64,000 bases of DNA from Gemmatimonadales bacterium (GCA_965248285.1 CBDFJJ010000005.1:121447-185446); one strand, 5' to 3'. Shown: positions 1 through 30,957, numbered from the stretch's first letter. The notes: generated from the sequence alone by a model not told the origin. A program made the numbers and translations.

Positions 1-173
1 ACGTGCAGCCGTTTGGCCGAAAAGCGCTTCGTGAACCCTGCGAGGACCAGTCCCGGGCTCGAGACCTGAGGCACGCGAATCGGCCGGTCGAGACCGATGT
101 CACCCGTCAGCACCTCGAGCTGGAGAGCTTTGCCTTTCCGGGCGAGGAGGTCGCTTACGGTAAGCGGTGTCAC
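1..173 (-). CDS. hprK: HPr kinase/phosphorylase, N-terminal part (gene continues beyond left edge)
   Basis: Open-ended minus-strand frame, absent from the ORF track. GTG at 173 overlaps the hpf stop (GTGA). Translation VTPLTVSDLLARKGKALQLEVLTGDIGLDRPIRVPQVSSPGLVLAGF fits the HprK N-terminal pattern. Confidence 0.55.
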   Translation of the reverse strand, partial: MTPLTVSDLLARKGKALQLEVLTGDIGLDRPIRVPQVSSPGLVLAGFTKRFSAKRLH

Positions 174-481
174 TTCTCTCCAGCCGCATGACGCCGGCTG
201 GCCGGGCTACTGGGCAGTTTGTCGAGTTGGTTTCGTAGTTTCACCATCGCGCGATCGAGAGCCGTTCGAGAGTCAGCAGCTTCAGCGCTGGCCACATGGA
301 CGTTGTCGCGCGGCATATACAGATGAAGCTCAACGATCCGCCGTTTGTGATCGTTGTCGAACACGATCTCTGCGCGTTGAGGACGCCACGCCAACCTGGC
401 GGCTCGCTCGATCAACTGCACCGCGCGATCGCGGAGCATATCATCAATTTCACAGTGACGGGCAGTTACCGTGATTTCCAC
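170..481 (-). CDS. hpf: ribosome hibernation promoting factor / RaiA family (short form)
   Basis: 103-aa ORF. MEITVTARHCEI...IVELHLYMP...ALDRAMVKLRNQLDK is typical of the sigma-54 modulation protein/HPF family. Confidence 0.8.
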   Translation of the reverse strand: MEITVTARHCEIDDMLRDRAVQLIERAARLAWRPQRAEIVFDNDHKRRIVELHLYMPRDNVHVASAEAADSRTALDRAMVKLRNQLDKLPSSPASRRHAAGEK

Positions 482-499
482 AGCAATCTCCTTTTCTCT

Positions 500-1612
500 T
501 CATGACACACCCGCGGTCTCCATCACGTGCGCCCGCGTTTGTTGGGCTGCGCGCTCCCACGACAATCCAAGCGCGAAGTTTCGCCCCCCCGAACCGAGAC
601 GCTCCCGAAACGCGACGTCAGCCGCGACACGAATCATCGCCGCCGCCAACGCCTGGTGGTCTCCATAGGGCACCAACAAACCTGTTTCCTCGTGAATGAC
701 GGATTCTCGCAATCCCGGGCTGTCAGCCGCAATGGTCGGCGTACCGCACGCGGAGGCCTCGACGTTGGAGATACCCCACCCCTCTTTCACCGAGGGAAAG
801 ACATGCGCCCAGGCCCGCCGCAGCAATTCCCGTTTTTGGCCCTCGCTGACAAATCCCAAAAACCGCACCGCGTCGCCCAAGGCCAGGCGCCCCGCGATCC
901 CCTGAAGGCGGCGGCGATCGTTTCCCTCGCCGGCGACCTGGAGAACGGCCTCGGGAAAGCGCAGTCGCACCCCTTGAAGGGCCCTGAGGGCCAAGTCTAT
1001 TCCCTTATAACGCTTGAGACGACCCACGTACAGGAAGGTAGGAACTTCCGCCCGCCCCACCGCCGCGTGCGGAACAAACCACTCCGCATCGACCCCCGGC
1101 AACACCACGCGAATGGCCGCCGGATCGACACCCCGTTGGGCCAACTCGTCGCGCGTGCTTTCGCTAATGGCGTGAAAAGCCGACCGTCGGTACACCCACG
1201 GAATGGCCCGCTCTGCGAACCAGACGAGCATCGCCACCGGAAGAGACGCTTCCTGAAACGCCGTTCTTCCGAAGAGATGGGGCACGATGGTATACATCGG
1301 CAAGCTCGTGAGCATCGGGAGATACAACGGGAGCTTGTTCACATCTTCGACGACGATATCGTACGGCGTCCGGTCGAGGGCATCCCGCACCGCCCGCCGG
1401 CCGAGAGCGGCAAAGGTGTGCCTTCCGCCTATGCGCCGGACTTCGATCCCGTCGATCACCGTCCGCGGTTTGGCTCCATCCCAACCGGAACACACCAACG
1501 TGACCTGATCTCCCGCCTGCACCAAACGCTTGAAAATCTCAAAAAAATGGATCTCCGCTCCACCCGCCAGCGGATTCTCCACATCCAGCCAGTTCACCGC
1601 AAGGATCCTCAC
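500..1612 (-). CDS. glycosyltransferase, GT4-like
   Basis: 370-aa ORF with N-terminal MRILAVNW...GGAE and a C-terminal FPSVKEGWGISNVEASACGTPTIA region typical of GT-B family 4 enzymes. Confidence 0.75.
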   Translation of the reverse strand: MRILAVNWLDVENPLAGGAEIHFFEIFKRLVQAGDQVTLVCSGWDGAKPRTVIDGIEVRRIGGRHTFAALGRRAVRDALDRTPYDIVVEDVNKLPLYLPMLTSLPMYTIVPHLFGRTAFQEASLPVAMLVWFAERAIPWVYRRSAFHAISESTRDELAQRGVDPAAIRVVLPGVDAEWFVPHAAVGRAEVPTFLYVGRLKRYKGIDLALRALQGVRLRFPEAVLQVAGEGNDRRRLQGIAGRLALGDAVRFLGFVSEGQKRELLRRAWAHVFPSVKEGWGISNVEASACGTPTIAADSPGLRESVIHEETGLLVPYGDHQALAAAMIRVAADVAFRERLGSGGRNFALGLSWERAAQQTRAHVMETAGVS

Positions 1613-2025
1613 AGCCGGCCGTGGTGCCGTGCAAGAGCATCCAACACTCCGTTGACGAACCCGGGTGCCTTCTCACCGGCGAACCACTGGGCCAAACGGA
1701 CTCCCTCGTCGATCACGACCTTTGCTGGAACGTCCGTCTCCAGAAGCTCATGGAGACCCAGACGGAGGATGTTGCGCTCAATCACGCCGATCCGCGAAAG
1801 GCGCCACTTCTCGACGGCCGCTGCGATATCATCGTCGAGGTTCCCCACCCGACCCGCAACACTCTGCACCAATCGCACCACGACGTCGCCGTCCGGTACG
1901 TGCCTCTCGTGGAATTGCAAACCGTCCACGACCGTCTCGACCGATGGCCTATGTTGCAGTTCCCACGCGTACAGTAGTTGGAGCGCTCGCGCGCGGACCT
2001 TGGTCTCACGTCGCAGCACGACCAT
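1609..2025 (-). CDS. nusB: transcription antitermination factor NusB
   Basis: 138 aa with RARALQLLYAWE, RLSRIGVIERNILRLGLHELL and FVNGVLDAL. Sits downstream of ribH, as in many bacteria. Confidence 0.85.
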   Translation of the reverse strand: MVVLRRETKVRARALQLLYAWELQHRPSVETVVDGLQFHERHVPDGDVVVRLVQSVAGRVGNLDDDIAAAVEKWRLSRIGVIERNILRLGLHELLETDVPAKVVIDEGVRLAQWFAGEKAPGFVNGVLDALARHHGRL

Positions 2026-2485
2026 CGACCCGGTCTAACGTGTCCGCCGTCTCGAGCGCCGCGACAGCCGCTTCCGTTCCTTTGTTCCCCGCCTCACCGC
2101 CGGCACGCGCCAGGGCCTGCGCGAGTGTTTCACATGTCAGCAGGCCAAAACCCACGGGGATTCCGGTTTCCTGCGCTGCTGTCCCAAGTCCACGTGCGGC
2201 TTCGGCACAGATGTAGTCGAAGTGCGGTGTCTCACCACGGATGACGGCCCCCAACGCCACCGCTGCGCGATAGGCTTTGGTGTCGAGCGCACGCCTCACC
2301 AAAAGGGGGAGTTCCCACGCCCCGGGAACCCAAACGACATCGACGCTGTCTTCGGAATACCCGCCGTCCGCCAACGCGGTCATGGCGCCTTCCAACAACC
2401 GGCGGGTCACTGCTTCGTTGAATCGGCTTACGACAACGAGCACCCGCCCGGGCGGGGAGCGGTCGAGAGATGAATCGGTTGCCAT
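2006..2485 (-). CDS. ribH: 6,7-dimethyl-8-ribityllumazine synthase
   Basis: Start moved to ATG 2485 (MATDSS...), 1 nt after the ribBA stop. VVVSRFNEAVTRRLLEGA...VWVPGAWELP is the lumazine synthase signature. Confidence 0.85.
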   Translation of the reverse strand: MATDSSLDRSPPGRVLVVVSRFNEAVTRRLLEGAMTALADGGYSEDSVDVVWVPGAWELPLLVRRALDTKAYRAAVALGAVIRGETPHFDYICAEAARGLGTAAQETGIPVGFGLLTCETLAQALARAGGEAGNKGTEAAVAALETADTLDRVDGRAAT

Positions 2486-2486
2486 C

Positions 2487-3692
2487 TCAGTGAGACAAAA
2501 AGTGCCCGAGCTTATCTCGCTTGGCGTTGAGATAGCCGCGGTTTTCGTCGGTCGGCAGCGGCTCAATCGGAACTCGCTCGACGATGCGCAATCCGTATGC
2601 CTCCAAACCCACCAGCTTCTTCGGGTTGTTGGTCAACACGCGGATGGAACTGAGCCCTTGATCCATGAGGATCTGTGCCCCGATACCGTAGTTGCGAAGA
2701 TCCGGGGCAAAACCCAATCGCTTGTTGGCTTCGACCGTGTCGTGTCCGCCGTCTTGCAGCTCGTACGCCTTGAGTTTGTTGAGCAATCCGATGCCGCGAC
2801 CCTCCTGGTCGAGATACACGATCACGCCGGCTCCGTGTTGGACGATCGCGCACATCGCACTCTGCAGCTGCCAACCGCAGTCACAGCGCGACGAACCAAA
2901 CACATCGCCGGTGAGGCACTTGGAGTGCATTCGCACCAGCACGTCCTCTCTGTTGGACACGTCGCCGTACACGAGTGCGATGTGTTCAGCGTCGTCAACA
3001 TCGTTCGAATACCCGACCACTCGAAACTCACCAAACTGTGTCGGCAACCTGGCGCTCGCGACGCGGTGGATCAAACGTTCGTGCTGCAAGCGGTACGCGA
3101 CGAGTTGGGCAACCGTGACAAAAGTGAGACCGTGCTCCGCCGAAAACTCCTCGAGTTGGGGACGGCGCATCATCTTGCCGTCGTCGTCGAGGATCTCACA
3201 GATCACCCCCGCGGGGTAGAGCCCCGCCAAGCGAGCGAGATCGACACTCGCCTCCGTTTGACCGACTCGCTGGAGAACACCGCCCGGACGGGCGCGCAAC
3301 GGAAAGACGTGCCCGGGACGTCGCAGATCTTCGGGAGCGGTTACCGGATCAATGGCAATCTGGATGGTCTTCCAACGATCCCACGCGGAAATGCCGGTCG
3401 TGACACCAAACCGCTTGGCACCGTCGATGCTCACCGTAAACGCCGTTTCGTTGGATTCGGTGTTTTCGTCCGCCATCTGGGGAAGTCCCAAGGCACTGCA
3501 CCGTGCCGGTGTCAACGTGAGGCAGATGAGGCCACGGCCGTACTTCGACATGAAGTTGATCCCGTCGTCGGTCATCCTCTCGGCGCCGCCTACGAGATCC
3601 CCCTCGTTCTCTCTATCTTCGTCGTCGGCCACAATAATCAGTCGGCCCTGACGAATATCGTCTATTGCCTGTTCAATGGTTCCAAACGCCAT
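2487..3692 (-). CDS. ribBA: bifunctional 3,4-dihydroxy-2-butanone-4-phosphate synthase / GTP cyclohydrolase II
   Basis: 401 aa. N-domain has DDEDRENEGDL. C-domain has SRCDCGWQL and EGRGIGLLNKLKAYELQ. Confidence 0.9.
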   Translation of the reverse strand: MAFGTIEQAIDDIRQGRLIIVADDEDRENEGDLVGGAERMTDDGINFMSKYGRGLICLTLTPARCSALGLPQMADENTESNETAFTVSIDGAKRFGVTTGISAWDRWKTIQIAIDPVTAPEDLRRPGHVFPLRARPGGVLQRVGQTEASVDLARLAGLYPAGVICEILDDDGKMMRRPQLEEFSAEHGLTFVTVAQLVAYRLQHERLIHRVASARLPTQFGEFRVVGYSNDVDDAEHIALVYGDVSNREDVLVRMHSKCLTGDVFGSSRCDCGWQLQSAMCAIVQHGAGVIVYLDQEGRGIGLLNKLKAYELQDGGHDTVEANKRLGFAPDLRNYGIGAQILMDQGLSSIRVLTNNPKKLVGLEAYGLRIVERVPIEPLPTDENRGYLNAKRDKLGHFLSH

Positions 3693-3702
3693 AACACCTC
3701 AC

Positions 3703-3758
3703 TCAATATCCAATATCCAACACTCAATATTCAATATTCAATATTGGATATTGGACTA
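3703..3758. repeat. heptanucleotide array 1 (YCAATAT x6 then TGGATAT-type x2), AT-rich
   Basis: Eight consecutive 7-mers: tcaatat ccaatat ccaacac tcaatat tcaatat tcaatat tggatat tggacta. An 11-bp inverted repeat pairs ccaatatccaa (3710-3720) with ttggatattgg (3745-3755). The array fills the ribE-ribBA intergenic gap and overlaps the ribE stop. Confidence 0.9.
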
Positions 3759-4355
3759 AGCATCTGTCGCCCGGGTATCGAGGAGCTGCTTCACGAACTT
3801 CCCGAGCATGTCTCCCTCCACGTGTATCCGATCGCCCGCCCCGAGAGATCCCAACGTCGTATGTTCGTACGTGAACGGAATCACCGAGACCTGCACGACG
3901 CCGGGATCGGGAATGGCATTCACCGTCATGCTCACCCCATCGAGTGCGATCGAACCGTGAAGTACGGTGATCGCTGCGATCGCGGCCGGTAGCTTCACGT
4001 CGATCAAGACGGCATCGTTGCGTGGGGTGACGCTGAGGATCTCGGCCACGCCATCGACGTGCCCTTGCACGAAGTGACCACCCAACCGCTCCCCGACCGC
4101 CAACGCCCGCTCGAGGTTCACCCGCGCACCAGCCTCCAACGCGTCGAGCGTCGTCCGGTCCCTAGTCGTAACGACAGCCTCGACGGAAAAGTTGCCGGGG
4201 CCCAGCTCCATGACCGTCAGGCAGGCACCGTTCAACGCGATGCTCTCGCCCAACGCAAGATCATCAAAGGAGGCCTCGATCGTCAGTTTCAGACGGTCGC
4301 CGTCGGTGCCAACGGCCACCACCGTCCCCTGTTCCTTTACGATCCCTGTAAACAT
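3756..4355 (-). CDS. ribE: riboflavin synthase (alpha chain)
   Basis: Start at ATG 4355 (MFTGIVKEQGTVV...). Two lumazine-binding repeats (GESIALNGACLTV / GSIALDGVSMTV). The upstream part of the 248-aa track ORF overlaps ribD and is judged non-coding. Confidence 0.85.
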   Translation of the reverse strand: MFTGIVKEQGTVVAVGTDGDRLKLTIEASFDDLALGESIALNGACLTVMELGPGNFSVEAVVTTRDRTTLDALEAGARVNLERALAVGERLGGHFVQGHVDGVAEILSVTPRNDAVLIDVKLPAAIAAITVLHGSIALDGVSMTVNAIPDPGVVQVSVIPFTYEHTTLGSLGAGDRIHVEGDMLGKFVKQLLDTRATDA

Positions 4356-5419
4356 AACTCTCGATCCACCACCAACAGCGTGTCTGGGCCCAAGGCTCGG
4401 TGCTCGACCACCGCCCAGGCCCGGGCGTCTTGTAAGGGGACGGCGCCGAGGGCGCCAAAGGCCGGAATGCCCTTCCCCAGCCAAATGGGAGCCTTGATCC
4501 AATAGAGCCGGTCGACCAGCCCCGCATCCATCAACGACCCAATCAGCGCTCCCCCACCTTCGATCAGGATCGATCGGATTCCTCGTTCTCCAAGGGCCAC
4601 CAGAGATCCGGCGAGGCCATCAGCCCCCAAAACCGTAACTTGAGTATGGGCAAGGGCTTGACTGAGTTCAACCTCCCGCGACGGCCTGGCAATGACAATA
4701 GTCGGAGCCGTTGCCGTGTCCAGGGCACGAAGATCCACCGAGATCTCGCCCTCGGTGGTGAATACTACCCTGGTCGGAACCACGCGCGGCTTCGTGGCGC
4801 CGCGGACGGTCAGCAACGGATCGTCCGCCACCACCGTTCCGCGGCCCACCCCGATGGCATCGAATCCGGCTCGCAGCCAGTGGACGTAGTCGCGGGCCTC
4901 GGGGCTCGAAATCCATTGCGAGCGGCCGGTTTCGTCGGCCAGAAACCCGTCGAGGGAGGTGGCCACCTTGACCGCCAGAAATGGGCGCCCTGGTCGGGAC
5001 GCGTCAAAGAGGAATGGGGCGTTGAGCGCCGCCCCCTCCTCGGCACCCACCCCGAGCACAACGTCGACGCCGGCACCGCGCAAGAAATCGAAGCCCCCTC
5101 CGGCGACGCTGGTGGGATCCGCAACGGCGGCAACCACCCGTGCCACGCCGGCAGCGGCCAGGGCTTCACAGCAAGGAGGAGTCTTCCCGTGGTGGGCGCA
5201 CGGCTCAAGGGTCACGACACACGTCGCGCCGACCGCGTCGTCACAGTCGTCGAGTGCGTTGGTTTCGGCGTGCGGCCCACCATACTCCGCGTGGAACCCC
5301 TCGCCAATGACATTGCCGTCACGAAGCAACACAGCGCCCACGAGTGGATTGGGCGCGACACGGCCCCACCCGCGCAAGGCGAGTTGGACGGCACGGCGCA
5401 TGGCCTCGAGCTCGGTCAC
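4337..5419 (-). CDS. ribD: bifunctional riboflavin biosynthesis deaminase/reductase
   Basis: Deaminase zinc motif HAE...TLEPCAHHGKTPPC, then a reductase domain (LLTVRG...SILIEGGGAL). Start is GTG 5419 or ATG 5401. The longer track ORF runs through heptad array 2 and is rejected. Confidence 0.85.
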   Translation of the reverse strand: MTELEAMRRAVQLALRGWGRVAPNPLVGAVLLRDGNVIGEGFHAEYGGPHAETNALDDCDDAVGATCVVTLEPCAHHGKTPPCCEALAAAGVARVVAAVADPTSVAGGGFDFLRGAGVDVVLGVGAEEGAALNAPFLFDASRPGRPFLAVKVATSLDGFLADETGRSQWISSPEARDYVHWLRAGFDAIGVGRGTVVADDPLLTVRGATKPRVVPTRVVFTTEGEISVDLRALDTATAPTIVIARPSREVELSQALAHTQVTVLGADGLAGSLVALGERGIRSILIEGGGALIGSLMDAGLVDRLYWIKAPIWLGKGIPAFGALGAVPLQDARAWAVVEHRALGPDTLLVVDRELCLQGS

Positions 5420-5436
5420 GACCCTGTCGCTTTGCT

Positions 5437-5520
5437 GAATATCCAATATCCAATATTGAATATCCAATATCGATGAATGAATTTTGGATATTGGATATTG
5501 GATATTGGATATTGGATATT
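5437..5520. repeat. heptanucleotide array 2: 12 in-phase heptads forming a long dyad
   Basis: gaatatc caatatc caatatt gaatatc caatatc | gatgaat gaatttt | ggatatt x5. The left arm (5437-5471) is nearly the reverse complement of the right arm (5486-5520). Lies between the purM stop and the ribD start. Confidence 0.95.
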
Positions 5521-5543
5521 CACCACACCCTCTTGCCGACTCT

Positions 5544-6563
5544 CTATTGAAGCCGCACTCCTTGGCCCTCGACGACCGCACCAATGACCCACGTCGGAAC
5601 GTCGGCCATGCGTGCCGCCGTTTGCACCTCATCCACGGCGTCGGAAGGCACGACCGCGACCAGACCGATCCCCATGTTGAATACGTCAAACATCTCGTTC
5701 CGCTCTACGTTACCTCTCTCTTGCAGGAAGGTGAACAGCGGCGGAACCTGCCAGGTCGACATGTCGATAGCCGCACCGCACCCGTCAGGCAGGGAACGAG
5801 AAAGATTTCCGGGCAATCCTCCCCCGGTGATATGCGCCAGCGCATGCACGCGCGGCAGAACGGAGGAGACTGCAGCGTAGTAGCTCCGATGAACGGTCAG
5901 CAGGGCGTCGCCCACCGACGTTCCCAATTCCGGGATTTCGCTGCCGACGTCGAGACTCAATTGGTCGAAGACGATGCGACGCGCCAACGAATACCCGTTG
6001 GTGTGCAAGCCGGTCGACGCGTACCCCACCAAGCTATCGCCTTGCCGCACCCGGTCGCCGTGCAGCGCATCCCCTTCGGACACGACGCCAATAATGGTGC
6101 CCGCCAAATCGTAATGGCCGGTCTGGTACAGGTCCGGCATTTCGGCGACCTCACCACCCGCCAGCGTGATATCGTGATTCCGGCATCCTCGCGCGACCCC
6201 CTCGACGATCGCGGCAACTCTGTCCGGATCGACCGAGGCTACCGCAACGTAGTCGAGGAATGCGAGGGGTCGCGCGGCATGAACGAGGATATCGTTGACA
6301 CAGTGATTGACGAGATCCTCTCCAATGGTGTCGTGCCGCTCCGCGCGGGCCGCCACCAACACTTTTGTGCCCACGCTGTCGGTGCTTGTCACGAGGATGG
6401 GGTCGCGGACGTCTTGCGGGACGCGGATCATCCCGCCGAAGCCACCCACGATGCCTCGGGACAACTCCGTGCGGGTTGAGGCGACCAGCTCGGCAATCTT
6501 GGCCGTGGCCCGCCGACCGGCATCGAGATCGACGCCGGCCTCGCGATATCTGTCAGCAGGCAT
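5544..6563 (-). CDS. purM: phosphoribosylformylglycinamidine cyclo-ligase (AIR synthetase)
   Basis: Start at ATG 6563 (MPADRYREAGVDLDAG). GGFGGM and TDSVGTK motifs. The track's TTG extension lies inside heptad array 3. Confidence 0.9.
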   Translation of the reverse strand: MPADRYREAGVDLDAGRRATAKIAELVASTRTELSRGIVGGFGGMIRVPQDVRDPILVTSTDSVGTKVLVAARAERHDTIGEDLVNHCVNDILVHAARPLAFLDYVAVASVDPDRVAAIVEGVARGCRNHDITLAGGEVAEMPDLYQTGHYDLAGTIIGVVSEGDALHGDRVRQGDSLVGYASTGLHTNGYSLARRIVFDQLSLDVGSEIPELGTSVGDALLTVHRSYYAAVSSVLPRVHALAHITGGGLPGNLSRSLPDGCGAAIDMSTWQVPPLFTFLQERGNVERNEMFDVFNMGIGLVAVVPSDAVDEVQTAARMADVPTWVIGAVVEGQGVRLQ

Positions 6564-6573
6564 AACGAAAAAC

Positions 6574-6637
6574 GAATATCCAATATCCAATATTGAATAT
6601 TGAATATTGAATTGCTGAATATTGAATAATGAACATC
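6574..6637. repeat. heptanucleotide array 3 (GAATATC/CAATATT type, 9 units, decaying)
   Basis: gaatatc caatatc caatatt gaatatt gaatatt gaattgc tgaatat tgaataa tgaacat(c). Directly upstream of purM. The last unit is the IS256-like target-site duplication. Confidence 0.9.
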
Positions 6638-8049
6638 GAGTTATTTTCGAAAGTTGTGGATTGGAGGAATGAGAAAGGCGGCGTATCCTTTCGTGTAGTC
6701 AGTTGAAACGTACACGAGATCCGGTTGTGACGACCGGAGAAAGGACACGCCACCGATGTTGAGGATAATAGAGAATGCGTCTGAGAGCAAAGGGAACGGA
6801 CTGTTCGCAGACCTGGACGAGCTTGCCAGAGAGGGAGCTCGGCGGATGCTGGTGAGTGCGTTGGACGCGGAAGTGACCGAGTATGTCGAGCGATATCGGA
6901 TTGAGCGAGACGGAGAGGGCCGCGCCCTGGTGGTGCGCAATGGCAAAGCCCGTCCCCGCAAGGTGACGCTGGGTGCTGGTACGGTCACGGTGACCGCGCC
7001 ACGGGTGCATGACCGTCGTATGCGGGCGCAGTTCACGAGCAAGATTTTGCCTCCCTATATGCGGCGGTCGCCGAAGGTGGCGGAGGTCTTGCCGGTGTTG
7101 TATCTGCGCGGTCTGTCGACGGGAGATTTTCGCGAGGCGTTGCCGATCTTGTTGGGTGAGGACGCATCAGGCTTGTCCCCGACGACGATCACGCGATTGA
7201 CGGCGGCGTGGGAGGGGGAATACCAGGCGTTTCGCCAGCGTGATCTGCGTGATCGGGAGTATGTGTACGTCTGGGTCGACGGGATCCACTTCAACATTCG
7301 CCTCGAGGCCGACCGGCTGTGTACGCTGGTGATGCTGGGCGCCCGGGCGGATGGGACGAAAGAGCTGATCGCGGTGGAGGACGGCTATCGGGAGAGCACG
7401 GAGAGCTGGTTGGCGGTGTTGCGCGATCTGAAGCGTCGGGGGATGCGGGCCCCGGTGCTGGCGATTGGGGATGGCGCGTTGGGGTTCTGGGCAGCGGTGC
7501 GGGAGGTGTGGCCGGCGACGCGGCAGCAGCGCGACTGGGTGCACCGGATGGCCAACGTGTTGGACAAGCTTCCGAAACGTTTGCAGCCGGCGGCGAAGCG
7601 GGTGTTGCGCGAGATGATGTATGCGGAGTCGCGTGCGGAGGCCGAGGCGCTGGTCGAGCGTTTCGCCACCGCGTATGCGGCCAAGTATCCCAAGGCGGTC
7701 GCCTCGCTCACGCGGGACCAGGAGCACCTGTACAGCCATTTTGATTTTCCGGCCGAGCATTGGAAACATATCCGTTCGACGAACGTGATCGAGTCTGCCT
7801 TCGCGACGGTCCGGTTACGACAGCGCGTGACCAAGGGAGCGGGCTCGCGGAGCAAAGGGCTGACGATGGCGTTCAAGCTGTTGGAGATGGCGCAGCAACG
7901 TTGGCGGAAACTCAACGCTCCAGAACTTCTCCCCCTGGTGTTGGCAGGAGAACAATTCAAAGATGGTATGCAGGAAACTGACAAAGAGAACACGGATCGG
8001 AAGGTCGCCGCTTGATCACTCACCGATCCACAACATTTGACAATACCTC
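6638..8049 (+). mobile_element. IS256-family insertion sequence (copy type A)
   Basis: Imperfect terminal inverted repeats: gagttattttcgaaagttgtggattgg versus the reverse complement of ccgatccacaacatttgacaatacctc. Flanked by an 8-bp direct repeat TGAACATC (6630-6637 and 8050-8057). Single transposase ORF. Confidence 0.85.
6756..8015 (+). CDS. IS256-family (mutator-type) transposase
   Basis: 419 aa with the typical layout: ...YVWVDGIHFNIRL...LAIGDGALGFW...HFDFPAEHWKHIRSTNVIES. Confidence 0.9.
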   Translation: MLRIIENASESKGNGLFADLDELAREGARRMLVSALDAEVTEYVERYRIERDGEGRALVVRNGKARPRKVTLGAGTVTVTAPRVHDRRMRAQFTSKILPPYMRRSPKVAEVLPVLYLRGLSTGDFREALPILLGEDASGLSPTTITRLTAAWEGEYQAFRQRDLRDREYVYVWVDGIHFNIRLEADRLCTLVMLGARADGTKELIAVEDGYRESTESWLAVLRDLKRRGMRAPVLAIGDGALGFWAAVREVWPATRQQRDWVHRMANVLDKLPKRLQPAAKRVLREMMYAESRAEAEALVERFATAYAAKYPKAVASLTRDQEHLYSHFDFPAEHWKHIRSTNVIESAFATVRLRQRVTKGAGSRSKGLTMAFKLLEMAQQRWRKLNAPELLPLVLAGEQFKDGMQETDKENTDRKVAA

Positions 8050-8091
8050 TGAACATCCGCATTAATCTGCTTTTTTCTGTGCTATCCGTGG

Positions 8092-9006
8092 CTAGAAGCC
8101 GTCCGTGTCGAAATGCACGAGATCGGTAAACGATCGTGCGCGCGCTGTGATCTCTGCGACACCGATTTCCTGAAATCGTTGCACGGAGAATCGCTCGACG
8201 GCAAACGATCCGGTAGTCGCACCGAACACCATGGCTCGGCGGAGATTCGCCCGCGAGAGGTCTCCCGAACGCGCCAGGTGCCCCATGAAGCCTCCCGCGA
8301 ACGCATCGCCGGCGCCTGTCGGATCGTAAATCTCCTCCAACGGAAATGCCGGTACGTAAAAGATACTCTTATCATCGACGAGGACGGCACCGTACTCGCC
8401 CTGTTTGATGATGACCATTCGCGGCCCGCGTTTCAGAATCCAGCGCGCCGCCCGGTAGATGTTCCAGTCACCCGACAATTGTCGCGCCTCGGCGTCGTTG
8501 ACCATGAGCACGTCGATGCGCTTCAACAACTGCATGAGCGTATCGGGTTGGCCGTCAATCCAGAAGTTCATCGTGTCGCATGCAACCAGATCTGGTTGTC
8601 GAACCTGATCCAGCACGCTCAGTTGGAGTTGCGGATCGATATTGCCGAGGAATACGAGTTTGGCATCGCGGTATGCGTCAGGGAGTTTGGGATCGAAATC
8701 TGAGAATACCCCTAATTGCGTGTCGATGGTCTCACGATTCTGGAGGTCGAAGGAGTACTTACCCTTCCACCGAAAGCTCTGACCGGCCGCCCGCTCGACC
8801 CCAGCGATGTCGATGCCTCGTTCGGCCATCCGCTCGAGTTCTTCGTTCGGGAAGTCATCGCCAATCACACCAACGGCCAGCACGGGATGAAAGAACGCGG
8901 CGGCATAGCCGAAAAAAGTGGCCGAGCCACCCAACGCATCGGCGGTGGACCCGAATGGCGTTTCTACCGAATCGAGTGCGATGCTACCGACGACGACTAA
9001 TCCCAT
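8092..9006 (-). CDS. PfkB-family carbohydrate kinase
   Basis: 304 aa. C-terminal DPTGAGDAFAGGF motif of ribokinase/PfkB kinases. Confidence 0.8.
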   Translation of the reverse strand: MGLVVVGSIALDSVETPFGSTADALGGSATFFGYAAAFFHPVLAVGVIGDDFPNEELERMAERGIDIAGVERAAGQSFRWKGKYSFDLQNRETIDTQLGVFSDFDPKLPDAYRDAKLVFLGNIDPQLQLSVLDQVRQPDLVACDTMNFWIDGQPDTLMQLLKRIDVLMVNDAEARQLSGDWNIYRAARWILKRGPRMVIIKQGEYGAVLVDDKSIFYVPAFPLEEIYDPTGAGDAFAGGFMGHLARSGDLSRANLRRAMVFGATTGSFAVERFSVQRFQEIGVAEITARARSFTDLVHFDTDGF

Positions 9007-9057
9007 GCTATCATCCGTTCCGGGGAATTGGCTGGCTGGCAGACGACTAGAGACGTA

Positions 9058-9351
9058 TCAGGCGTCGGATTCCTTTGGCTTTGACGAACCGGAGTCAGGT
9101 TTCTTGGATTTCTCCCCGCTCTTCGACGAGTCCTGCGCAGCGGAGTCAGGCTTGTCCTTCGGTGACCCCGCCCTTTTGTAGTCGGTCTCGTAGAAGCCAG
9201 ATCCTTTGAACACCACGCCCGCTCCACCCGAGATGATCCGATCGCCCGCCGTTCCGCACTTCGGACATTCGGCTCTGGTCTCGTCGCTCATCTTCTGCAT
9301 TTTTTCGTATTGGTCCCCGCATGCGGGGCATTTATACCCGTATGTGGGCAT
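9058..9351 (-). CDS. FmdB-family zinc-ribbon protein
   Basis: MPTYGYKCPACGDQYEKMQKMSDE...CPKCG is the classic FmdB/CxxC-x-CxxC N-terminus. Low-complexity acidic/serine tail. Confidence 0.8.
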   Translation of the reverse strand: MPTYGYKCPACGDQYEKMQKMSDETRAECPKCGTAGDRIISGGAGVVFKGSGFYETDYKRAGSPKDKPDSAAQDSSKSGEKSKKPDSGSSKPKESDA

Positions 9352-9420
9352 GATGCACTCTACCGACTTTGGGAATGTCGTGGAAACAACCGGGCATCTT
9401 AGCGGCCACCCGTGGCCTGG

Positions 9421-9492
9421 TCAAGCAGGGTAGTCTGGTCAAGCAGGGTGGTCTGGTCAAGCAGGGTGGTCTGGTTAAGCAGGACGGTATAC
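9421..9492. repeat. 18-bp tandem repeat (3 full units plus a diverged unit containing the mutase stop)
   Basis: tcaagcagggtRgtctgg at 9421-9438, 9439-9456 and 9457-9474. The unit at 9475-9492 (ttaagcaggacggtatac) is the 3' end of the mutase gene. Confidence 0.9.
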
Positions 9493-11043
9493 CCCCCAAG
9501 GCTTGCGTAGGGTGTCGCTGATCTCTCCCACGGTCGCTCGCGCACGCACGGCGTCCAGGATCAACGGCATCAACCGCGCGTCACCACCGGCGCCATCGGT
9601 CAGGGCTTCGACGGCCGCGGCATAAGCTGCTTTATCTCGGCCGGCGCGGGTGCTCCGCACCCGCTCCCTCTGCTGACCCGCCAACGCGTCATAATCCGGA
9701 GACGGCATGCTGCTCGGTGGTTCATACACCTCGAATTGATTCACACCCACGACCACCTTGTCTTTCGCCTCCAGCGCGCGCTGGTCGTCGTACGCCGCCT
9801 GGCTGATGGCACGCTGGAAGAAACCCGACTCGATGGCACGCGCCGCCCCACCGCGTTTCTCAACCTCCGTCAACAACTCACGCGCCTCCAGCTCGATCGT
9901 GTTTGTCAGATACTCGACGTAATGCGACCCGCCCAAGGGATCCGCGGTCTGTGCTACACCGGACTCGTGCGCGAGGACTTGCTGCGTGCGAAGTGCCAAT
10001 CGCGCCGCATTCTCAGACGGAAGTGCGAGTGCTTCGTCGTATCCGTTTGTGTGGAGGGACTGTGTTCCCCCCAACACGGCCGCCAGCGCTTGAACGGTCA
10101 CTCGGACGACGTTGTTGAGGGGCTGGTGCGCCGTGAGCGTCGAACCACCAGTCTGCGTGTGAAACCGCAAGCGGCAGCTCTTGTCACACCCTCCGTAACG
10201 GTCGCTGACGATCGTCGCCCACAGCCTCCGCGCAGCGCGGAACTTCGCCACCTCTTCGAAGAGGTCGTTGTGCGCGGCAAAGAAAAACGACATGCGCGGT
10301 GCGATGTCGTCGATGAGCAGGCCGCGCGCCACAGCACGATCCAGATACTCGATGGCGTTTGCCAAGGTAAACGCCACTTCTTGAATCGCCGTCGATCCGG
10401 CCTCGCGCATATGGTAACCGCTCACCGAGATCGGGTTGAATGCCATCCGTTCTTCCGCCACAAAAGCCAAGATGTCCGTGGCCAGCCGCAGCGAGGGTTC
10501 GAGCGGGTAGATATATGTCCCACGCGCGACGTATTCCTTGAGTACGTCATTCTGAAGGGTGCCGCGGAGCTTGTCTTGCGACGTTCCCTGCTCTTCACCC
10601 ACGACGACATACATGGCCAAAAGGATCGCGGCCGTGGCGTTGATCGTCATTGAGGTTGATACGGCATCGAGGGGAATGCCATCGAACACGGCAGCGAAGT
10701 CATCGACACTGTCGATCGCGACGCCGGCGCGGCCCACTTCTCCCTCCGCCCTCGGAGAGTCCGAGTCCAATCCCATTTGGGTCGGCAGATCGAAGGCGAC
10801 CGACAGCCCCGTCTGACCAGCGTCGAGCAATTGCCGAAAGCGTTCGTTGGTCTCTTTGGCCGTACCGAACCCTGCGTACTGTCGCATGGTCCAAAGACGA
10901 CTACGATACATACCGCCATGAATACCACGCGTAAACGGAAACTCGCCCGGTACCTCACGCTCGGCATCTCCGATATCTACCCGCTGGGGTCCGTACGATT
11001 CTTCGATTGGGATTCCGGCGGGCGATCGTCGCTCGTCGGTCAT
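9475..11043 (-). CDS. methylmalonyl-CoA mutase family, catalytic (large, TIM-barrel) subunit without B12-binding domain
   Basis: 522 aa. [28 protein letters not shown] and [13 protein letters not shown] are hallmark acyl-CoA mutase motifs. Confidence 0.85.
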
Positions 11044-12056
11044 TGGACCGCGGCTTCGACTTCCTGAAGCGTTCGCTCGACGAAAGCGACATCATCGCGG
11101 CTCCCGATCACGAGCGGTGTCCGTTGATGCAGTTCGGTGGGCACGATGTCCAAAATCGGGCCCTCGCCGTCGGACGCCGCTCCTCCGGCCTGCTCGGCCA
11201 CGAACGCGAGCGGACACGCCTCGTACAGCAAACGGAGTTTGCCCGCGGGTGACTTGGTGTCGGCCGGATACATGAATATCCCGCCGGCCAGCAGATTGCG
11301 GTGGAAGTCGGCCACGAGTGACCCGATGTAGCGGGCATTCTTTCCGTTGCCGTCGCCATCAACCCCTTTGAAACATCCTACCGCCTTTTGGTATCCGGGA
11401 GACCAACAAGTGTAGTTGCTTTCGTTGATGCTATAATATCTACCCGTTGGTGGGGTCTCCACATCGTGGTTGACGAGACGGAACTCACCGATAATCGGAT
11501 CGAGCGTGAAACAATGCACGCCGTTCCCCGCCGAATACACCATCACGGTGCTCGACCCGTAGATCACATAACCCGCGGCAACCTGGTTCCGCCCTTTTTG
11601 CAAACAGTCGACGACGTCTGCACATCCGTCGGCCGACACCCGGCGTTGGATAGAAAAGATCGTGCCGATGGAAACGTTCACGTCGATGTTCGACGACCCG
11701 TCGAGCGGATCGAACAACACGATGTACTTTCCGGAAGCCGCGCTGGCATCCGCCGGAATCGGGTCCTCCTCCTCCTCCGACGCCATGAGTGATACCCGCC
11801 CGGTATGCCGCAGCGCCTCTTTCATCACGTCATTGGCGAGCACATCGAGTTTTTGCTGCTCCTCACCTTGCACATTCACCTTGCCTGCGGTGCCCAAGAC
11901 GTCCACCAATCCGGCGCTACGCATGTGTCCCGAGATAATCTTCGCAGCTAACGTGACGTCGTAGAGAAGGTGCGAGAGTTCCCCGGTTGCCTGCGGGTGC
12001 AGACGTTCCTGCTCCGTGATGAACCGTTCGATGGTAACCAACTCAGAAAAGCGCAA
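11040..12056 (-). CDS. fbp: fructose-1,6-bisphosphatase class I
   Basis: 338 aa with [34 protein letters not shown] and GGIFMYP motifs. Confidence 0.9.
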
Positions 12057-14260
12057 CGGACCCTCTCCACAAATTGAGGTGATTTGCCCTGGTCGATCTC
12101 AAAGTAGCTCCCGTCCGTCCGGATCGTCACCGTCCCACCCTCATCCGTCCGAAACACCGCCACGTCACGATCGGCGAGCCGCCGAATAACGGCCGGCGCC
12201 GGGTGACCGAAGCGATTGTTGCGCCCAACACTAATCACCGCCACCCTCGGCCGGATGACGTCCAGAAACGGCGCCGACGTGCTTCCCGCTGAGCCGTGGT
12301 GCCCCACCTTCAAGAGCTCGACCGGGCCCAACCGAGGGTGGATCTCGGACTCGGCCGGCAATCCGGCATCGCCGGCGAATATGGCGTCGAATTCCTTGAA
12401 GCGCAGGTGAAGGATCAACGAATTCTCATTCGGCGAGGATACGCGGCCGATCCACCGGGCGGATGGGTGCAAAACCGCGACCACCACCGAATCGATCTCG
12501 AGTGTGTCTCCGGCCCGCGCCGCCCGCCACTCCCCAGCAAAGGCGTCCACGACGCCGAGATATTCCCTGTACAGAGCGGTTCCCAATGGCTGGGCCGGCT
12601 CCAACACCAGGGCGGGCCTGGTGTGCTCGATGACCGTCACCAGACCCCCCAAATGGTCGGCGTCGCCATGCGACACGAAGGCCACGTCGAGTCGTTGAAC
12701 GCCTCGCCGCCGGAAAAAGGGCATCACCACCCGACGGCCGGCATCGGCATCACCGAATCGTGGCCCTGCGTCGATGAGCATCCAACGTCCCCGAGGAGTA
12801 CGCACAGCAATCGCGTCTCCCTGCCCAACCGCCAGAACGTGTATCGACAGCTTGCCGTCATCCGATCGGCCCCTACCCCCAAGACGCGGCATCGCTACCA
12901 AACCCCAGACCACCACCGCCAGGGCGCCGGCGGCTCGATACCTGACCACCACCCACCGGGGCGCCCGCCATGTCGTCCAAACCGCCGCCCCGAGAACCCC
13001 CAACCACGGCAGGGCGAAGGACCAACCCGGTTCTCCGCTCAGATGCCCCCAGGGGATCTTGGTGGCTACCACCGCGATACGTTCGATCGCCGAGAGGACC
13101 AAACCCGCGCTCGCCGCCAATGTGGATCCGAAAGCGATACTCGCAAAGATGGCGGGTACCGCGACGCCTGCGAGGGGAACGGCGAGCAAATTCGACAGCA
13201 TCCCGATCGGCGCCACGCTGCCAAACGCCAGCGCCGTGATCGGGGCCGTCGCGAGCGTTGCACCACATGAAACCGCGGACAACCTCGTCAGACCGACGTG
13301 GCGGGATCGTGACAACCCGACTGCCCACACCGTCCCCCCGACAGCGGCGATCGATAACCATGCGCCGACCGAACTCACTGCACTGGGATCGAGCGTCCAT
13401 ACCACCAGCGCGGCCACGGCCAAGACGGCCGACGGCGGCGGTCTTCGCTGGCGCGACCGCCCCACCGCATAGATCGCCACGAACGCCGCCGCCCGCGTCG
13501 CCGGCGCGGGAAACCCGAGCAGCGCCACGTACGCCCAAGTGACGATCGCGCTGACGGGCCAGCTAACCCGCGATCCGAGCACGGCGCGGGCGACCAGGCG
13601 AGTCCAAGCGGCGACCATGCCGACGTGCAAGCCCGAGATCGCGAGGAGGTGAGCCAGCCCGGCGCCCGTAAAGAGGGCACGAAGCTCGGGATCCAGATCC
13701 TCTCGCCGGCCGAGAACAATCGCATCGACGAGTCCGGCCCGGGCGCCGTAGAGTCGGTGGATGCGGTGAGCGATGCGTTCGCGAACTCGAAAACGCAGCG
13801 GAATGCGATGGCCGGACAGTTGGCGCAGATGCCGCACACGCATCCAGCCCGGGGAGTGGACGGTGCCCACCACCACCACCGTCTCTCCGCTGATCGGCAG
13901 CCTTTCGGTGGTGAAGCGAAGACGCACCCGACCCCGGCAGCCCTCCGGCGCATGGACGACGCTGGCGGTGGCGGTTCCGCCACCACCCGGTGCGTCGTGT
14001 ACGCGGACGTACGCCGCGTGTGCTCCCTTTGCCCATTGTTGGGCACACCCTTCAGCAGCGCGGCGTCGGGCGACCGAACCCACTGTGACACCGACGAGAA
14101 GAGCACAGAGCAAACGGTGCCGCCACGCCAAGGTCTTTCGGCCGACGATAAGGAGCACCGCGGTGACACACAGGGAGGGAACGGGCGGAACCAGGACTAT
14201 GAGGGCGACCGCCATGCCTGCGGTGTACGCGACGGCGAACCGAGCGACCGGCGTCCCCAC
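11948..14260 (-). CDS. comEC: DNA internalization competence protein ComEC/Rec2
   Basis: 770 aa. Polytopic competence domain (AGLAHLLAISGLHVG) plus a C-terminal metallo-beta-lactamase domain (VGQGDA...SHGDADHLGG...VGHHGS). The 3' tail overlaps the fbp start by about 109 nt. Confidence 0.8.
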   Translation of the reverse strand: MGTPVARFAVAYTAGMAVALIVLVPPVPSLCVTAVLLIVGRKTLAWRHRLLCALLVGVTVGSVARRRAAEGCAQQWAKGAHAAYVRVHDAPGGGGTATASVVHAPEGCRGRVRLRFTTERLPISGETVVVVGTVHSPGWMRVRHLRQLSGHRIPLRFRVRERIAHRIHRLYGARAGLVDAIVLGRREDLDPELRALFTGAGLAHLLAISGLHVGMVAAWTRLVARAVLGSRVSWPVSAIVTWAYVALLGFPAPATRAAAFVAIYAVGRSRQRRPPPSAVLAVAALVVWTLDPSAVSSVGAWLSIAAVGGTVWAVGLSRSRHVGLTRLSAVSCGATLATAPITALAFGSVAPIGMLSNLLAVPLAGVAVPAIFASIAFGSTLAASAGLVLSAIERIAVVATKIPWGHLSGEPGWSFALPWLGVLGAAVWTTWRAPRWVVVRYRAAGALAVVVWGLVAMPRLGGRGRSDDGKLSIHVLAVGQGDAIAVRTPRGRWMLIDAGPRFGDADAGRRVVMPFFRRRGVQRLDVAFVSHGDADHLGGLVTVIEHTRPALVLEPAQPLGTALYREYLGVVDAFAGEWRAARAGDTLEIDSVVVAVLHPSARWIGRVSSPNENSLILHLRFKEFDAIFAGDAGLPAESEIHPRLGPVELLKVGHHGSAGSTSAPFLDVIRPRVAVISVGRNNRFGHPAPAVIRRLADRDVAVFRTDEGGTVTIRTDGSYFEIDQGKSPQFVERVRCAFLSWLPSNGSSRSRNVCTRRQPGNSRTFSTTSR

Positions 14261-14348
14261 GATCGTTTACCGCCGCGCCCGAAGAGTGTTCGCGCGACGT
14301 AACCTGGTGGTTGCTGTCTCTAACGGAGTCCTCGGTAGGGCTCGAGTT

Positions 14349-15686
14349 TCAACCCAGGACGGCCAGTTGGCGGCGGGTGGAAGTCGGGGTGCCCGTGAAT
14401 GTCGCACCGGTGGTACCGCTGAGGCGGACATGTTGGTACGACCCGATGAGGGTGGAGGGCCCCTCGATGAGCACCACCTTGTTGGTCCTTGTCCGCGACT
14501 GCAGCAAATCGCCCCGCCGGGCTTGTTTTTCCACCAGGACCTCGTGCGTACCGCCGACGAGCCCGGCGTTCTTTGTCCGCGCCACTTTGCGCACCGTCGC
14601 GATGAGCCGCTCCAACCGTTCGCCTGCCACGTCGCCGGGCACGTGATCCTTGATCTTGACGGCCGGCGTACCGTCTCGAACCGAGTACTTGAACGTGAAC
14701 GCGTCGTCGAACTGCACGCTGCGTACCAGGCTCTCGGTCTCGAGGAAATCTTCCTCTGTCTCTCCAGGAAAACCGACGATGATGTCCGTTGTGATCGCCA
14801 GCTCGGGTATGGCGGCTCGCAAACGTGCAACGCACTCGATGTACGAATCTCGATCGTAGCGTCGCAGCATGCGCTTGAGCACACTCGTCGAGCCGCTCTG
14901 AACCGGGAGATGGACGTGCTCACACACTTCCGGGACGTCGGCCATCGCCGTGATGACCGCCGAGCTGAAATCATTCGGGTGTGGACTCGTGAACCGCACT
15001 CTGCGAATGCCATCCACTCCTCCGACCGCGCGCAGGAGATCTGCAAAGTCGTGCGTTCCGTCGTGATAGCTGTTGACCGTCTGCCCAAGCAGGGTCACCT
15101 CGGTGACGCCGGTGGCGACGAGGGCCTGCACCTCACCAACGACATCCCCCAGCATACGGCTTCGTTCGGGACCGCGCGTCATCGGAACAATGCAGAACGT
15201 GCACCGATAATTGCATCCTCGTTGTACCGTCACGAAGGCACTGGCTCGATCGCCCCCGCCCCCGCCCCCGCCCCGTGCCGGCGGAACGTCTTCATAGTGT
15301 TCCCATGACTTGAAGTCGACGTCCACCGACCGCTCTCCGCCCGCCGCCCGGCGGATCAACTCCGGCAACGCACGGTATCCGTCCGGGCCGACCACGAGGT
15401 CGACGTGCGGGATCCGCTTCAAGAGATCGGGCCCCAACCGCTGCGCCATGCACCCAACCACCCCCAGCACGTCTCCTGCCCTCTTATGGCGCTTCAAATC
15501 CCCCACCCGACCGTAGATCCGTTGCTCGGCGTTGTCACGAACCGCACACGTGTTCACCAGAATCACGTCGGCATCCTCGGGGGTTTCCATAACCGAGAAT
15601 CCGTTACGGCCCAGCAGTCCGAAGATCAGCTCCGTGTCGGCCACGTTCATTTGGCAGCCGTAGGTCTCCACGTAGATCCGTTTCAT
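14349..15686 (-). CDS. miaB: tRNA-i6A37 methylthiotransferase MiaB
   Basis: MKRIYVETYGCQMNVADTE N-terminus, radical-SAM CNYRCTFC motif and a TRAM-like C-terminus. Confidence 0.9.
   Translation of the reverse strand: MKRIYVETYGCQMNVADTELIFGLLGRNGFSVMETPEDADVILVNTCAVRDNAEQRIYGRVGDLKRHKRAGDVLGVVGCMAQRLGPDLLKRIPHVDLVVGPDGYRALPELIRRAAGGERSVDVDFKSWEHYEDVPPARGGGGGGGDRASAFVTVQRGCNYRCTFCIVPMTRGPERSRMLGDVVGEVQALVATGVTEVTLLGQTVNSYHDGTHDFADLLRAVGGVDGIRRVRFTSPHPNDFSSAVITAMADVPEVCEHVHLPVQSGSTSVLKRMLRRYDRDSYIECVARLRAAIPELAITTDIIVGFPGETEEDFLETESLVRSVQFDDAFTFKYSVRDGTPAVKIKDHVPGDVAGERLERLIATVRKVARTKNAGLVGGTHEVLVEKQARRGDLLQSRTRTNKVVLIEGPSTLIGSYQHVRLSGTTGATFTGTPTSTRRQLAVLG
15253..15274 (-). repeat. (GGGGC)n pentanucleotide tract inside miaB (G-quadruplex-type motif on the coding strand)
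   Basis: The plus strand reads C5 G C5 G C5 G C4. This encodes the GGGGGG insertion in the linker ...PPARGGGGGGDRASAFVTVQRGCNYRC. Confidence 0.9.
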
Positions 15687-15693
15687 GTATCGA

Positions 15694-16938: not shown

Positions 16939-16955
16939 GTTTGTCGGCTCGCCTA

Positions 16956-24266: not shown

Positions 24267-24278
24267 AGACGAGGGATT

Positions 24279-24377
24279 CAGATTTCAGATTGCAGATTGC
24301 AGATTGCAGATCTCAGATTGCCCTTCCACCCCCCAGTGCACCGTAGTGCATCGCCCAATCTGCCATCTGAAATCTAG
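24279..24377. repeat. heptad dyad: (CAGATTG)x6 left arm, 35-nt loop, start of (CAATCTG)n right arm
   Basis: cagattt cagattg x3 cagatct cagattg (24279-24320), a loop, then caatctg ccatctg aaatcta (24356-24376). The array is cut by IS5-like copy 1 at CTAG. Confidence 0.9.
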
Positions 24378-25690: not shown

Positions 25691-25712
25691 CTAGAATCTG
25701 AAATCTGAAATT
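25691..25712. repeat. distal part of the CAATCTG heptad arm (after the IS)
   Basis: ctag aatctga aatctga aatt continues the heptad phase interrupted at 24377. Confidence 0.8.
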
Positions 25713-30896: not shown

Positions 30897-30913
30897 TCCC
30901 TCTCTTTCGTTAT

Positions 30914-30948: not shown

Positions 30949-30957
30949 CGGGACAAG

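Follow-up and report, generated by a model that had tools for sequence, protein, structure and literature searches.

AT-rich heptanucleotide repeat arrays between the purine and riboflavin genes of a narrow Gemmatimonadota clade

Why should the spacers between housekeeping genes of a high-GC bacterium be filled with AT-rich repeats of period seven? The question is raised by a 64,000-nt stretch of DNA from a Gemmatimonadales bacterium (GCA_965248285.1, CBDFJJ010000005.1:121447-185446; called the window in the following, with positions counted from its first nucleotide), in which tandem heptamers occupy three gaps of one minus-strand gene string: that between ribE and ribBA (array a), that between purM and ribD (array b), and the one upstream of purM (array c). 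Our analysis shows that arrays a, b and c are long heptanucleotide simple sequence repeats (SSRs) of the class that includes the long simple sequence repeats (LSSRs) and the short tandemly repeated repetitive (STRR) sequences, with an AT-rich, quasi-palindromic unit CCAATAT/ATATTGG and the core AATATT. Judged by gene order and sequence in related genomes, arrays b and c are insertions that date to the ancestor of the relatives with at least 88% PurM identity, and they are specific to this one narrow clade of Gemmatimonadota. The host, Gemmatimonadota, and the repeat unit AATATCC/GGATATT are new; the element class is already known.

Tandem heptamers between the cistrons

Tandem Repeats Finder reported period-7 arrays at 3703-3755, at 5438-5471 together with 5484-5520, and at 6574-6633, with 5-8 copies per array, i.e., runs of tandem 7-nt units as in long SSRs. 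A self-match scan of the 64 kb window detected seven period-7 regions and none of periods 4, 5 or 8-11. The two-unit pattern AATATYSAATATY matches 20 times, every time within the three sites, compared to 0.00 matches expected from dinucleotide shuffles, and the GC content of arrays a, b and c is 0.23-0.26 versus 0.62 for the window. All these analyses agree with the initial annotation, made from the sequence alone, which had described AT-rich heptamers (GAATATC/CAATATT and the complement GGATATT) filling three gaps; its description of the arrays as intergenic, STRR-like and self-complementary, within a single minus-strand gene string, is also borne out. The six heptamer arrays of the window all lie between Pfam-supported genes and, like LSSRs, are non-coding.

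In mRNA sense, array a reads TCCAATA (twice), TTGAATA (twice), TTGAGTG, TTGGATA (twice) and TTGAGTG. It is bounded by the ribE stop codon (3756-3758) on one side and by the Shine-Dalgarno sequence GAGGTG and the ATG of ribBA (3692) on the other. Array b lies between the purM stop codon (5544-5546) and the GTG of ribD at about 5420, and array c, which is truncated or rearranged beside an insertion sequence (IS), ends 10 nt upstream of the purM ATG (6563). The strict 7-nt phase over 8-12 units that had been proposed for the arrays applies to array a, with its 8 units, and not to the other two: the 5+5 units of array b are separated by a 15-nt spacer that shifts the phase by 1, and one unit of array c is 8 nt long.

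Translation across the arrays reads ...ISNIQYPISNIQ..., in agreement with the spurious peptide extension that the initial annotation had noted in the open reading frame (ORF) track. A coding mini-ORF was rejected, as the ISNIQYPI peptides are read-through artefacts of translation. The same kind of artefact is found in a public annotation: the PurM call in the related locus L201 (4947-6014; P0005, 355 aa) carries 16 extra codons that are read through a heptamer array.

Presence, absence and growth of the arrays in relatives

Conservation analysis showed that the same heptamer family is present in L001, an uncultured Gemmatimonadaceae metagenome-assembled genome (MAG) with ∼90% nucleotide identity and synteny over positions 1-18000 of the window, in the spacer from the pfkB stop codon to the purM ATG as well as in that between purM and ribD. 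Arrays of the AATATCC type also occupy both purM-flanking sites in L201, L202, L203, L207 and L208, whose PurM proteins are 88-93% identical to that of the window, and all relatives with a PurM identity of at least 88% have arrays at pfkB-purM and at purM-ribD. (One database protein, P0001, is 100% identical to the window PurM.) No arrays were found in the 15-21 kb examined of the syntenic outgroups L204 and L205/L206 (PurM identity 77-78%). In L204 and L205, which share the gene order, only 6 nt (TAGAGAGCAGTG) lie between the purM stop and the ribD start, and the outgroup pfkB-purM spacer is 76-82 nt long and non-repetitive. Because arrays occur at these two sites throughout the clade and are lacking in outgroups of the same gene order, they represent clade-specific insertions. 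The recipient gene string was almost certainly co-transcribed, judged by its gene order, and purM and ribD were probably translationally coupled before the insertion.

An assembly or scaffolding artefact is hardly conceivable. In the L001 assembly, array sites do coincide exactly with 100-N gaps and with duplicated contig ends, but in seven independent assemblies, including the window, one and the same family is resolved at identical sites, with differences that follow the lineages, and those of L001, L201, L202, L203, L207 and L208 also come from independent samples. Of the five 100-N scaffold gaps in L001, four (177-276, 2574-2673, 9834-9933 and 12802-12901) fall at short tandem repeats of the window, namely arrays a and c, (CGCCCC)4 at 15251-15274, and a region near two copies of CCGCCAA at 17587; at the gap 9834-9933 both contig ends duplicate each other. 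The fifth gap (14689-14788) corresponds to window positions ∼1813-1914 in nusB, where no repeat was seen. The gaps at array sites indicate that short-read assemblers break on these repeats.

Unit numbers differ between close relatives. For array c we count 3 units in the case of L001 and 10 or more for L208, and the orthologous sequence in relatives corresponds to a predicted hairpin of 33-103 nt that reaches from the stop codon of pfkB as far as the ATG of purM. For array b we observe 5+5, 5+2 or about 4+4 units. Such variation in copy number and sequence among close relatives, seen for arrays a, b and c, is as described for LSSRs that undergo slippage.

Among the relatives compared, array a is seen in the window alone, although L001, which has an assembly gap exactly at this position, may also carry it. 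The ribE-ribBA spacers of L202-L205 are unrelated and 16-29 nt long. L201 carries at the position of array a one lone GGATATTGAGTGAGG seed that contains the ribE stop codon, and in the window ATATTGAGTG recurs with a 21-nt period. In view of the lone seed in L201 and the 21-nt repeat, it looks as if array a, which is younger than arrays b and c, has grown in place from a single GGATATTGA seed by slipped-strand duplication. For arrays b and c we likewise infer growth in place.

Array b is the best conserved of the three. Comparison of the window with L001 or L208 showed that its stems differ at 2 of 73 positions, compared to 0.20 at 4-fold degenerate sites of purM, i.e., the stems are about seven-fold more conserved than these sites (binomial P = 1.5e-5). 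The 5+5 units, including a variant TTCAATA, are found at the identical place in all three genomes. Moreover, the GC content at the 4-fold sites is 0.78, so that unconstrained AT-rich DNA should drift towards GC, whereas array b still has 26% GC. Array b is either under purifying selection or continuously homogenised; its unchanged copy number argues against heavy turnover.

Predicted hairpins and possible roles

All hairpins described here are predicted RNA folds, evaluated by minimum free energy (MFE) and z-score. Whereas two arrays had been called self-complementary in the initial annotation, the folds of the minus-strand RNA indicate that all three are so to some degree: array a has an MFE of -29.9 kcal/mol (z = -6.4), array b of -53.8 kcal/mol (z = -8.8), and array c, the weakest, of -15.2 kcal/mol (z = -2.0). 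Over the different predictions, the MFE of arrays a and b ranges from about -26 to -54 kcal/mol. In mRNA sense, every element has C-type units (AAUAUCC) on its 5′ side and, on its 3′ side, G-type units (GGAUAUU, GAUAUUC) that are complementary to them, and a single long hairpin is predicted for 14 of 14 homologous elements (z = -2.4 to -8.7). These hairpins begin 0-21 nt past the upstream stop codon. At purM they end 0-10 nt before the ATG, leaving no Shine-Dalgarno sequence outside the stem, and at ribD and ribBA they end 12-16 nt before the start, with only AGGAG or GAGGUG left free.

We tentatively favour, without giving it quite an even chance, the reading that the arrays act as intercistronic RNA hairpins that would keep the cistrons coupled and might also serve as processing sites. 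According to this model, the arrays would be transcribed as part of a polycistronic mRNA, in which the 5′ C-type arm would pair with the 3′ G-type arm to form one AU-rich hairpin of 16-40 bp. The hairpin would loop out the extra 60-100 nt, so that the stop codon could meet the downstream ribosome binding site or start codon at the base of the helix. With this geometry, an insertion between cistrons that once abutted and were probably coupled could be tolerated, and downstream initiation would then depend on whether the base of the stem is opened by the upstream ribosome as it terminates. With 20 bp or more, the duplex would also be a putative site for RNase III or might stop 3′-exonucleases, as is the case for repetitive extragenic palindromic (REP) sequences and the Haemophilus hmw heptamer hairpin. 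Once present, the stem would have to stay intact, which would explain the conservation of the array sequence. At the RNA level, an effect on processing or stability, as suggested in the initial annotation, or on coupling would be the most plausible, whereas attenuation, also suggested there, fits neither the scan for terminator-like sites nor that for Rfam families described below.

Several observations weigh against this model. Most of the folding energy survives when 7-nt blocks are put in random order, and only array b of the window (0 of 300 shuffles) and array c of L201 (12 of 300) beat this null, indicating that it is largely the quasi-palindromic unit itself that confers the potential to form a hairpin; the hairpin by itself was therefore dropped as evidence of selection. 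There is also no sense-strand bias: in 12 of 15 elements the fold of the antisense strand is at least as good, so that a palindrome at the DNA level fits as well as an RNA hairpin. Among 20 pairs, RNAalifold detected a single compensatory one (C-G to G-C), which goes back to one event in the seven sequences and could also be generated by templated quasi-palindrome correction in the absence of selection, and covariation as proof of a selected RNA structure was discarded as too weak. The low divergence of array b could in part come from slippage homogenisation, co-transcription is deduced from gene order and the 6-nt ancestral spacing, and at array c of the window an IS256-family element separates pfkB from purM, which makes the coupling model inapplicable there.

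It is possible, if somewhat doubtful, that the arrays are neutral by-products of slippage in tolerant spacers, with no effect on expression and with hairpins that are an accident of the quasi-palindromic unit. The variation in copy number and unit sequence among relatives, the restriction of array a to one genome, the block shuffles and the lack of strand bias would all be expected in this case, as would the abundance of unrelated heptamer arrays on array-bearing contigs, which points to a genome-wide mutational propensity; the arrays of Xanthomonas and Nostoc have no identified function either. However, neutrality does not easily account for array b, which kept its unit count and was seven-fold more conserved than 4-fold sites across 20% neutral divergence, and which stayed at 26% GC where neutral sites have 78%. 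Furthermore, on general grounds, a stem of at least 30 bp located 0-16 nt from a start codon in an essential operon must affect translation. An element that acts as DNA, e.g., an internal or UP-like promoter, a platform for a nucleoid-associated or heptad-reading protein, or a cruciform, seems unlikely to us. It would make sense of islands of 23-26% GC within 62% GC DNA, of a palindrome that is equally good on both strands, and of -10-like GATATT and -35-like TTGAAT/TTGGAT hexamers repeated at 18-nt spacing; a further array of the window, array f, lies in a divergent promoter region, and purM needs a new promoter after the IS256 insertion, with array c as the sole AT-rich DNA upstream. On the other hand, a scan with the sigma-70 consensus revealed no promoter-like site in the arrays, which is weak evidence both ways since this consensus may not be that of Gemmatimonadota; the genes abut in the outgroups and thus do not need an internal promoter, and no candidate binding protein was identified.

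Copying of a mobile palindromic element with heptamer arms between the sites, similar to REP sequences and bacterial interspersed mosaic elements (BIMEs) or to miniature inverted-repeat transposable elements (MITEs), appears quite improbable. The elements at pfkB-purM and purM-ribD do share the boundaries TGAATATC ... GATATTCAG and a similar loop (ATTCCTTCTTC at both sites in L208), and the purM-ribD insertion has extra non-repeat flanks compared to the outgroups. But target-site duplications are lacking, the 64 kb of the window and the 12-21 kb per relative contain only 2-3 copies, all within a single operon, array a grew from a local seed, and neither a REP-associated tyrosine transposase (RAYT) nor another dedicated transposase was seen. 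A MITE was rejected on comparison with the empty sites of L204 and L205, which revealed no target-site duplication. REP sequences and BIMEs of Enterobacteria are imperfect palindromes after stop codons in transcribed operon spacers, where they are tolerated by folding and act as 3′ mRNA stabilisers. Our arrays resemble them as imperfect palindromes that follow stop codons in presumably transcribed operon spacers; in contrast, REP sequences occur in hundreds of dispersed copies, are linked to RAYTs and are not built of heptamers, while in the sequence covered here 2-3 copies lie in one operon (three sites in the 64 kb of the window).

We do not think that the arrays are a dedicated riboflavin or purine regulator, and a classical cis-regulator, be it a flavin mononucleotide (FMN) riboswitch, a PurR-type operator, or an intrinsic terminator or attenuator, is highly improbable. 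Their position in front of rib and pur genes would suit such a function, but the arrays are absent in sister lineages with the same operon, and arrays of the same unit adjoin unrelated genes in many metagenome contigs. Rfam searches at the gathering score gave no match, to FMN riboswitches included, in the whole window (1-64000), and a consensus scan found no terminator-like hairpin with a T-run at any array, which counts against this explanation. Unlike an intrinsic terminator, the stems are AU-rich and are flanked on their 3′ side by a Shine-Dalgarno sequence and a start codon.

Gene context, other arrays and known repeat families

The arrays, genes and IS elements of the window are summarized in Table 1. 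The gene string pfkB-purM-ribD-ribE-ribBA-ribH-nusB extends at both ends beyond the purM-ribD-ribE-ribBA operon recognised in the initial annotation. In relatives, pfkB lies directly upstream of purM with array c in between. The location of riboflavin genes directly after purM in this lineage is an unusual operon arrangement.

Table 1. Heptamer arrays, genes and IS elements of the window. Gene calls are supported by Pfam matches; the ribD start was placed at a GTG that is kept in relatives.
Feature	Position	Strand	Description
Array a	3700-3755	-	eight in-phase heptamers, whole ribE-ribBA gap filled
Array b	5437-5520	-	five AATATCC, 15-nt loop, five GATATTG/GATATTC
Array c	6574-6637	-	about eight heptamers, TTCAATA/TTGGATA in mRNA sense
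Array d	24273-24372	+	(CAGATTG)n left arm, GC-rich spacer, (CAATCTG)n right arm; resumes at 25696-25711
Array f	30909-30952	+	(CGTCTCA)5, direct, no hairpin
GT4 glycosyltransferase	500-1612	-	Pfam
nusB	1609-2025	-	Pfam
ribH	from 2006	-	Pfam
ribBA	2487-3692	-	DHBP synthase / GTP cyclohydrolase II; PF00926, PF00925
ribE	3756-4355	-	riboflavin synthase; PF00677
ribD	4337 to about 5420	-	deaminase/reductase; PF00383, PF01872
purM	5544-6563	-	AIR synthase; PF00586, PF02769
pfkB-family kinase	8092-9006	-	PF00294
IS256/Mutator-family element	6638-8049	+	PF00872; transposase 6756-8015; missed in the initial annotation
IS5-family element	24373-25695		DUF772/DDE_Tnp_1 transposase 24504-25604; perfect 20-bp terminal inverted repeats TCTAGCAGGTTGCGGAAAAA

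The 1.4-kb IS256 element is bordered by terminal inverted repeats (6638-6664 and 8023-8049), outside which lies an 8-bp target duplication, TGAACATC (6630-6637 and 8050-8057). Absent from the syntenic L001, the element abuts array c and parts pfkB from array c and purM, so that transcription of purM must now come from the IS end or from array c. The IS5 element is inserted into array d, in the right arm of its inverted repeat, (CAGATTG)n/(CAATCTG)n, and the reconstructed pre-insertion sequence of this array folds into a continuous 6+6-unit hairpin of about -48 kcal/mol. Two of the IS copies in the window are thus located in or beside heptamer arrays, which may serve as hot spots or safe havens for IS insertion. 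Array f lies upstream of a LolA-like gene (30123-30896) on the minus strand.

Repeats of other periods are also present in the window. An 18-nt repeat, GTGGTCTGGTCAAGCAGG, occurs four times at 9412-9483 in the spacer between the genes of methylmalonyl-CoA mutase and a Zn-ribbon protein, and varies in number, the window being ∼42 nt longer than L001 at this site. At 51630-51804, 14.6 copies of the 12-nt repeat GGCTGCGGCGAG encode an AARA/AAWD tetrapeptide repeat within the plus-strand ORF 51220-51939, which adjoins an ORF (52073-53254) that, judged by eye, is a Mutator-like transposase. The hexamer array (CGCCCC)4 mentioned above and (GGGGCG)5 at 27821-27851 are both perfect, are reverse complements of each other, and lie 12.5 kb apart.

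At least 120 metagenome contigs contain an exact match to three CCAATAT units, and 80 of these contigs are listed (L081-L160; GC content 0.26-0.69). Besides the matching arrays, the 80 contigs listed carry 64 further period-7 arrays of other units in 0.5 Mb, and 2-13 arrays for each of the other periods between 4 and 12. In unselected PurM-neighbourhood loci we counted 15 period-7 arrays in 1.14 Mb, i.e., the listed contigs are about ten times richer, and it seems to be whole genomes that are rich in heptamers. Of 154 arrays in the wider sample, only 16 have a partner in inverted orientation within 200 nt, indicating that the all-hairpin architecture is a trait of the family in this clade and is not general among heptamer arrays. 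Loci of Vicinamibacterales, Verrucomicrobiota and Longimicrobiaceae contain heptamer arrays as well. Arrays of GC-rich or unrelated units lie next to purM or to start codons in L064 (1420-1530 and 3255-3298), L055 (2623-2758) and L059 (4223-4260); among the individual cases, arrays of the (CGATCCG)n type directly precede purM in a Vicinamibacterales MAG, a Verrucomicrobiota contig has two heptamer arrays side by side, and a Gemmatimonadota contig has a (CACCTGT)4 array that ends 6 nt before an ATG. A bolder version of the hairpin model, which we do not expect to hold, is that heptamer hairpins have become domesticated as a lineage-specific operon punctuation, i.e., as double-stranded RNA modules that set cistron ratios through their opening by ribosomes and cleavage by RNase III, and that a so far unrecognised, heptad-specific machinery stands behind the many unrelated arrays that co-occur in single genomes of Gemmatimonadota, Acidobacteriota, Verrucomicrobiota and others. 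Such a machinery could consist of a protein, or be a property of a polymerase, by which nucleic acid of 7-nt periodicity is read or written, the alternative being plain slippage.

The STRR families of heterocystous cyanobacteria have consensus heptamers of their own, namely CCCCAGT, TTGGTCA and CAACAGT. Our arrays are not members of these families, since their unit is AATATCC/GGATATT and the host belongs to Gemmatimonadota according to its PurM relatives. Like the STRR sequences of Calothrix and Nostoc, they are intergenic heptamers that also lie between cistrons, as in Nostoc pecE-pecF (PMC4692102). As cited in PMC4679880 and PMC4692102, the survey of Mrazek et al. 2007 found heptanucleotide repeats to be the commonest class of long SSRs in most bacterial genomes; the heptamer-rich groups reported from it include high-GC Burkholderia, Xanthomonas and Actinobacteria, and polymerase slippage was proposed as their origin. 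To the extent that it is reported there, this survey does not bear out the suggestion in the initial annotation that such arrays are not described in high-GC genomes outside cyanobacteria. The GGGAATC arrays of Xanthomonas are intergenic, lie between the same gene pairs across species, and vary in length and sequence (PMC4692102); they are mostly transcribed, sometimes occur as inverted pairs, and no function has been identified. Our arrays resemble these LSSRs in having tandem 7-nt units in intergenic DNA of a high-GC, non-cyanobacterial host, sometimes with inverted pairs that can form stem-loops. In contrast, the unit described here has 26% GC, is quasi-palindromic and is not G-rich, so that it lacks G-quadruplex potential; unlike in the LSSR reports, the host is a member of Gemmatimonadota and every copy in the clade is of the hairpin type. 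No paper that links heptamers or SSRs to Gemmatimonadota was found in a literature search.

Two systems come close in their relation to start codons. In Haemophilus influenzae, a transcribed (ATCTTTC)n repeat is part of a long 5′-untranslated-region hairpin whose cleavage by RNase III controls HMW1A expression (PMC12721329). Like the repeats of hmw1A and hmw2A, our heptamers would contribute an arm to a long and stable RNA hairpin, predicted here, that lies shortly before a coding region; however, the right arm of the hmw hairpin is a non-repeat, G-rich region, whereas here both arms are repeats, and hmw encodes a phase-variable adhesin with rapid changes in copy number (PMC12721329), whereas the genes here are housekeeping genes and the best-conserved array shows no change in copy number over 20% neutral divergence. 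In Beggiatoaceae, TAACTGA arrays end a few nucleotides from start codons and a post-transcriptional role was proposed (PMC4679880), and heptamers of Nostoc are also found just upstream of start codons, for which a translational role was proposed. Our arrays likewise lie near starts, and canonical Shine-Dalgarno sequences are rare in Beggiatoaceae (PMC4679880), as at purM here. The arrays of this gammaproteobacterium, in contrast, consist of a single genome-wide unit in 2-6 copies and are direct repeats without hairpins, with one indirect repeat in 170 sets (PMC4679880).

Arrays of this type have practical consequences for genome analysis: they break short-read assemblies, as seen from the gaps in L001, create false N-terminal extensions such as that of the 355-aa PurM P0005, and appear to attract IS insertions. 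That heptamers are the commonest long simple repeat in many bacteria was noticed almost twenty years ago. The purM-rib locus provides an unusually clean natural experiment on such repeats: sister lineages have the same essential operon with or without arrays, the two cistrons abutted in the ancestral state, one array has been caught at its birth from a single seed, and another, array b, is conserved well beyond neutral expectation. The locus thus offers cheap constructs with which an action as RNA hairpins, in coupling or processing, could be told from mere tolerance.

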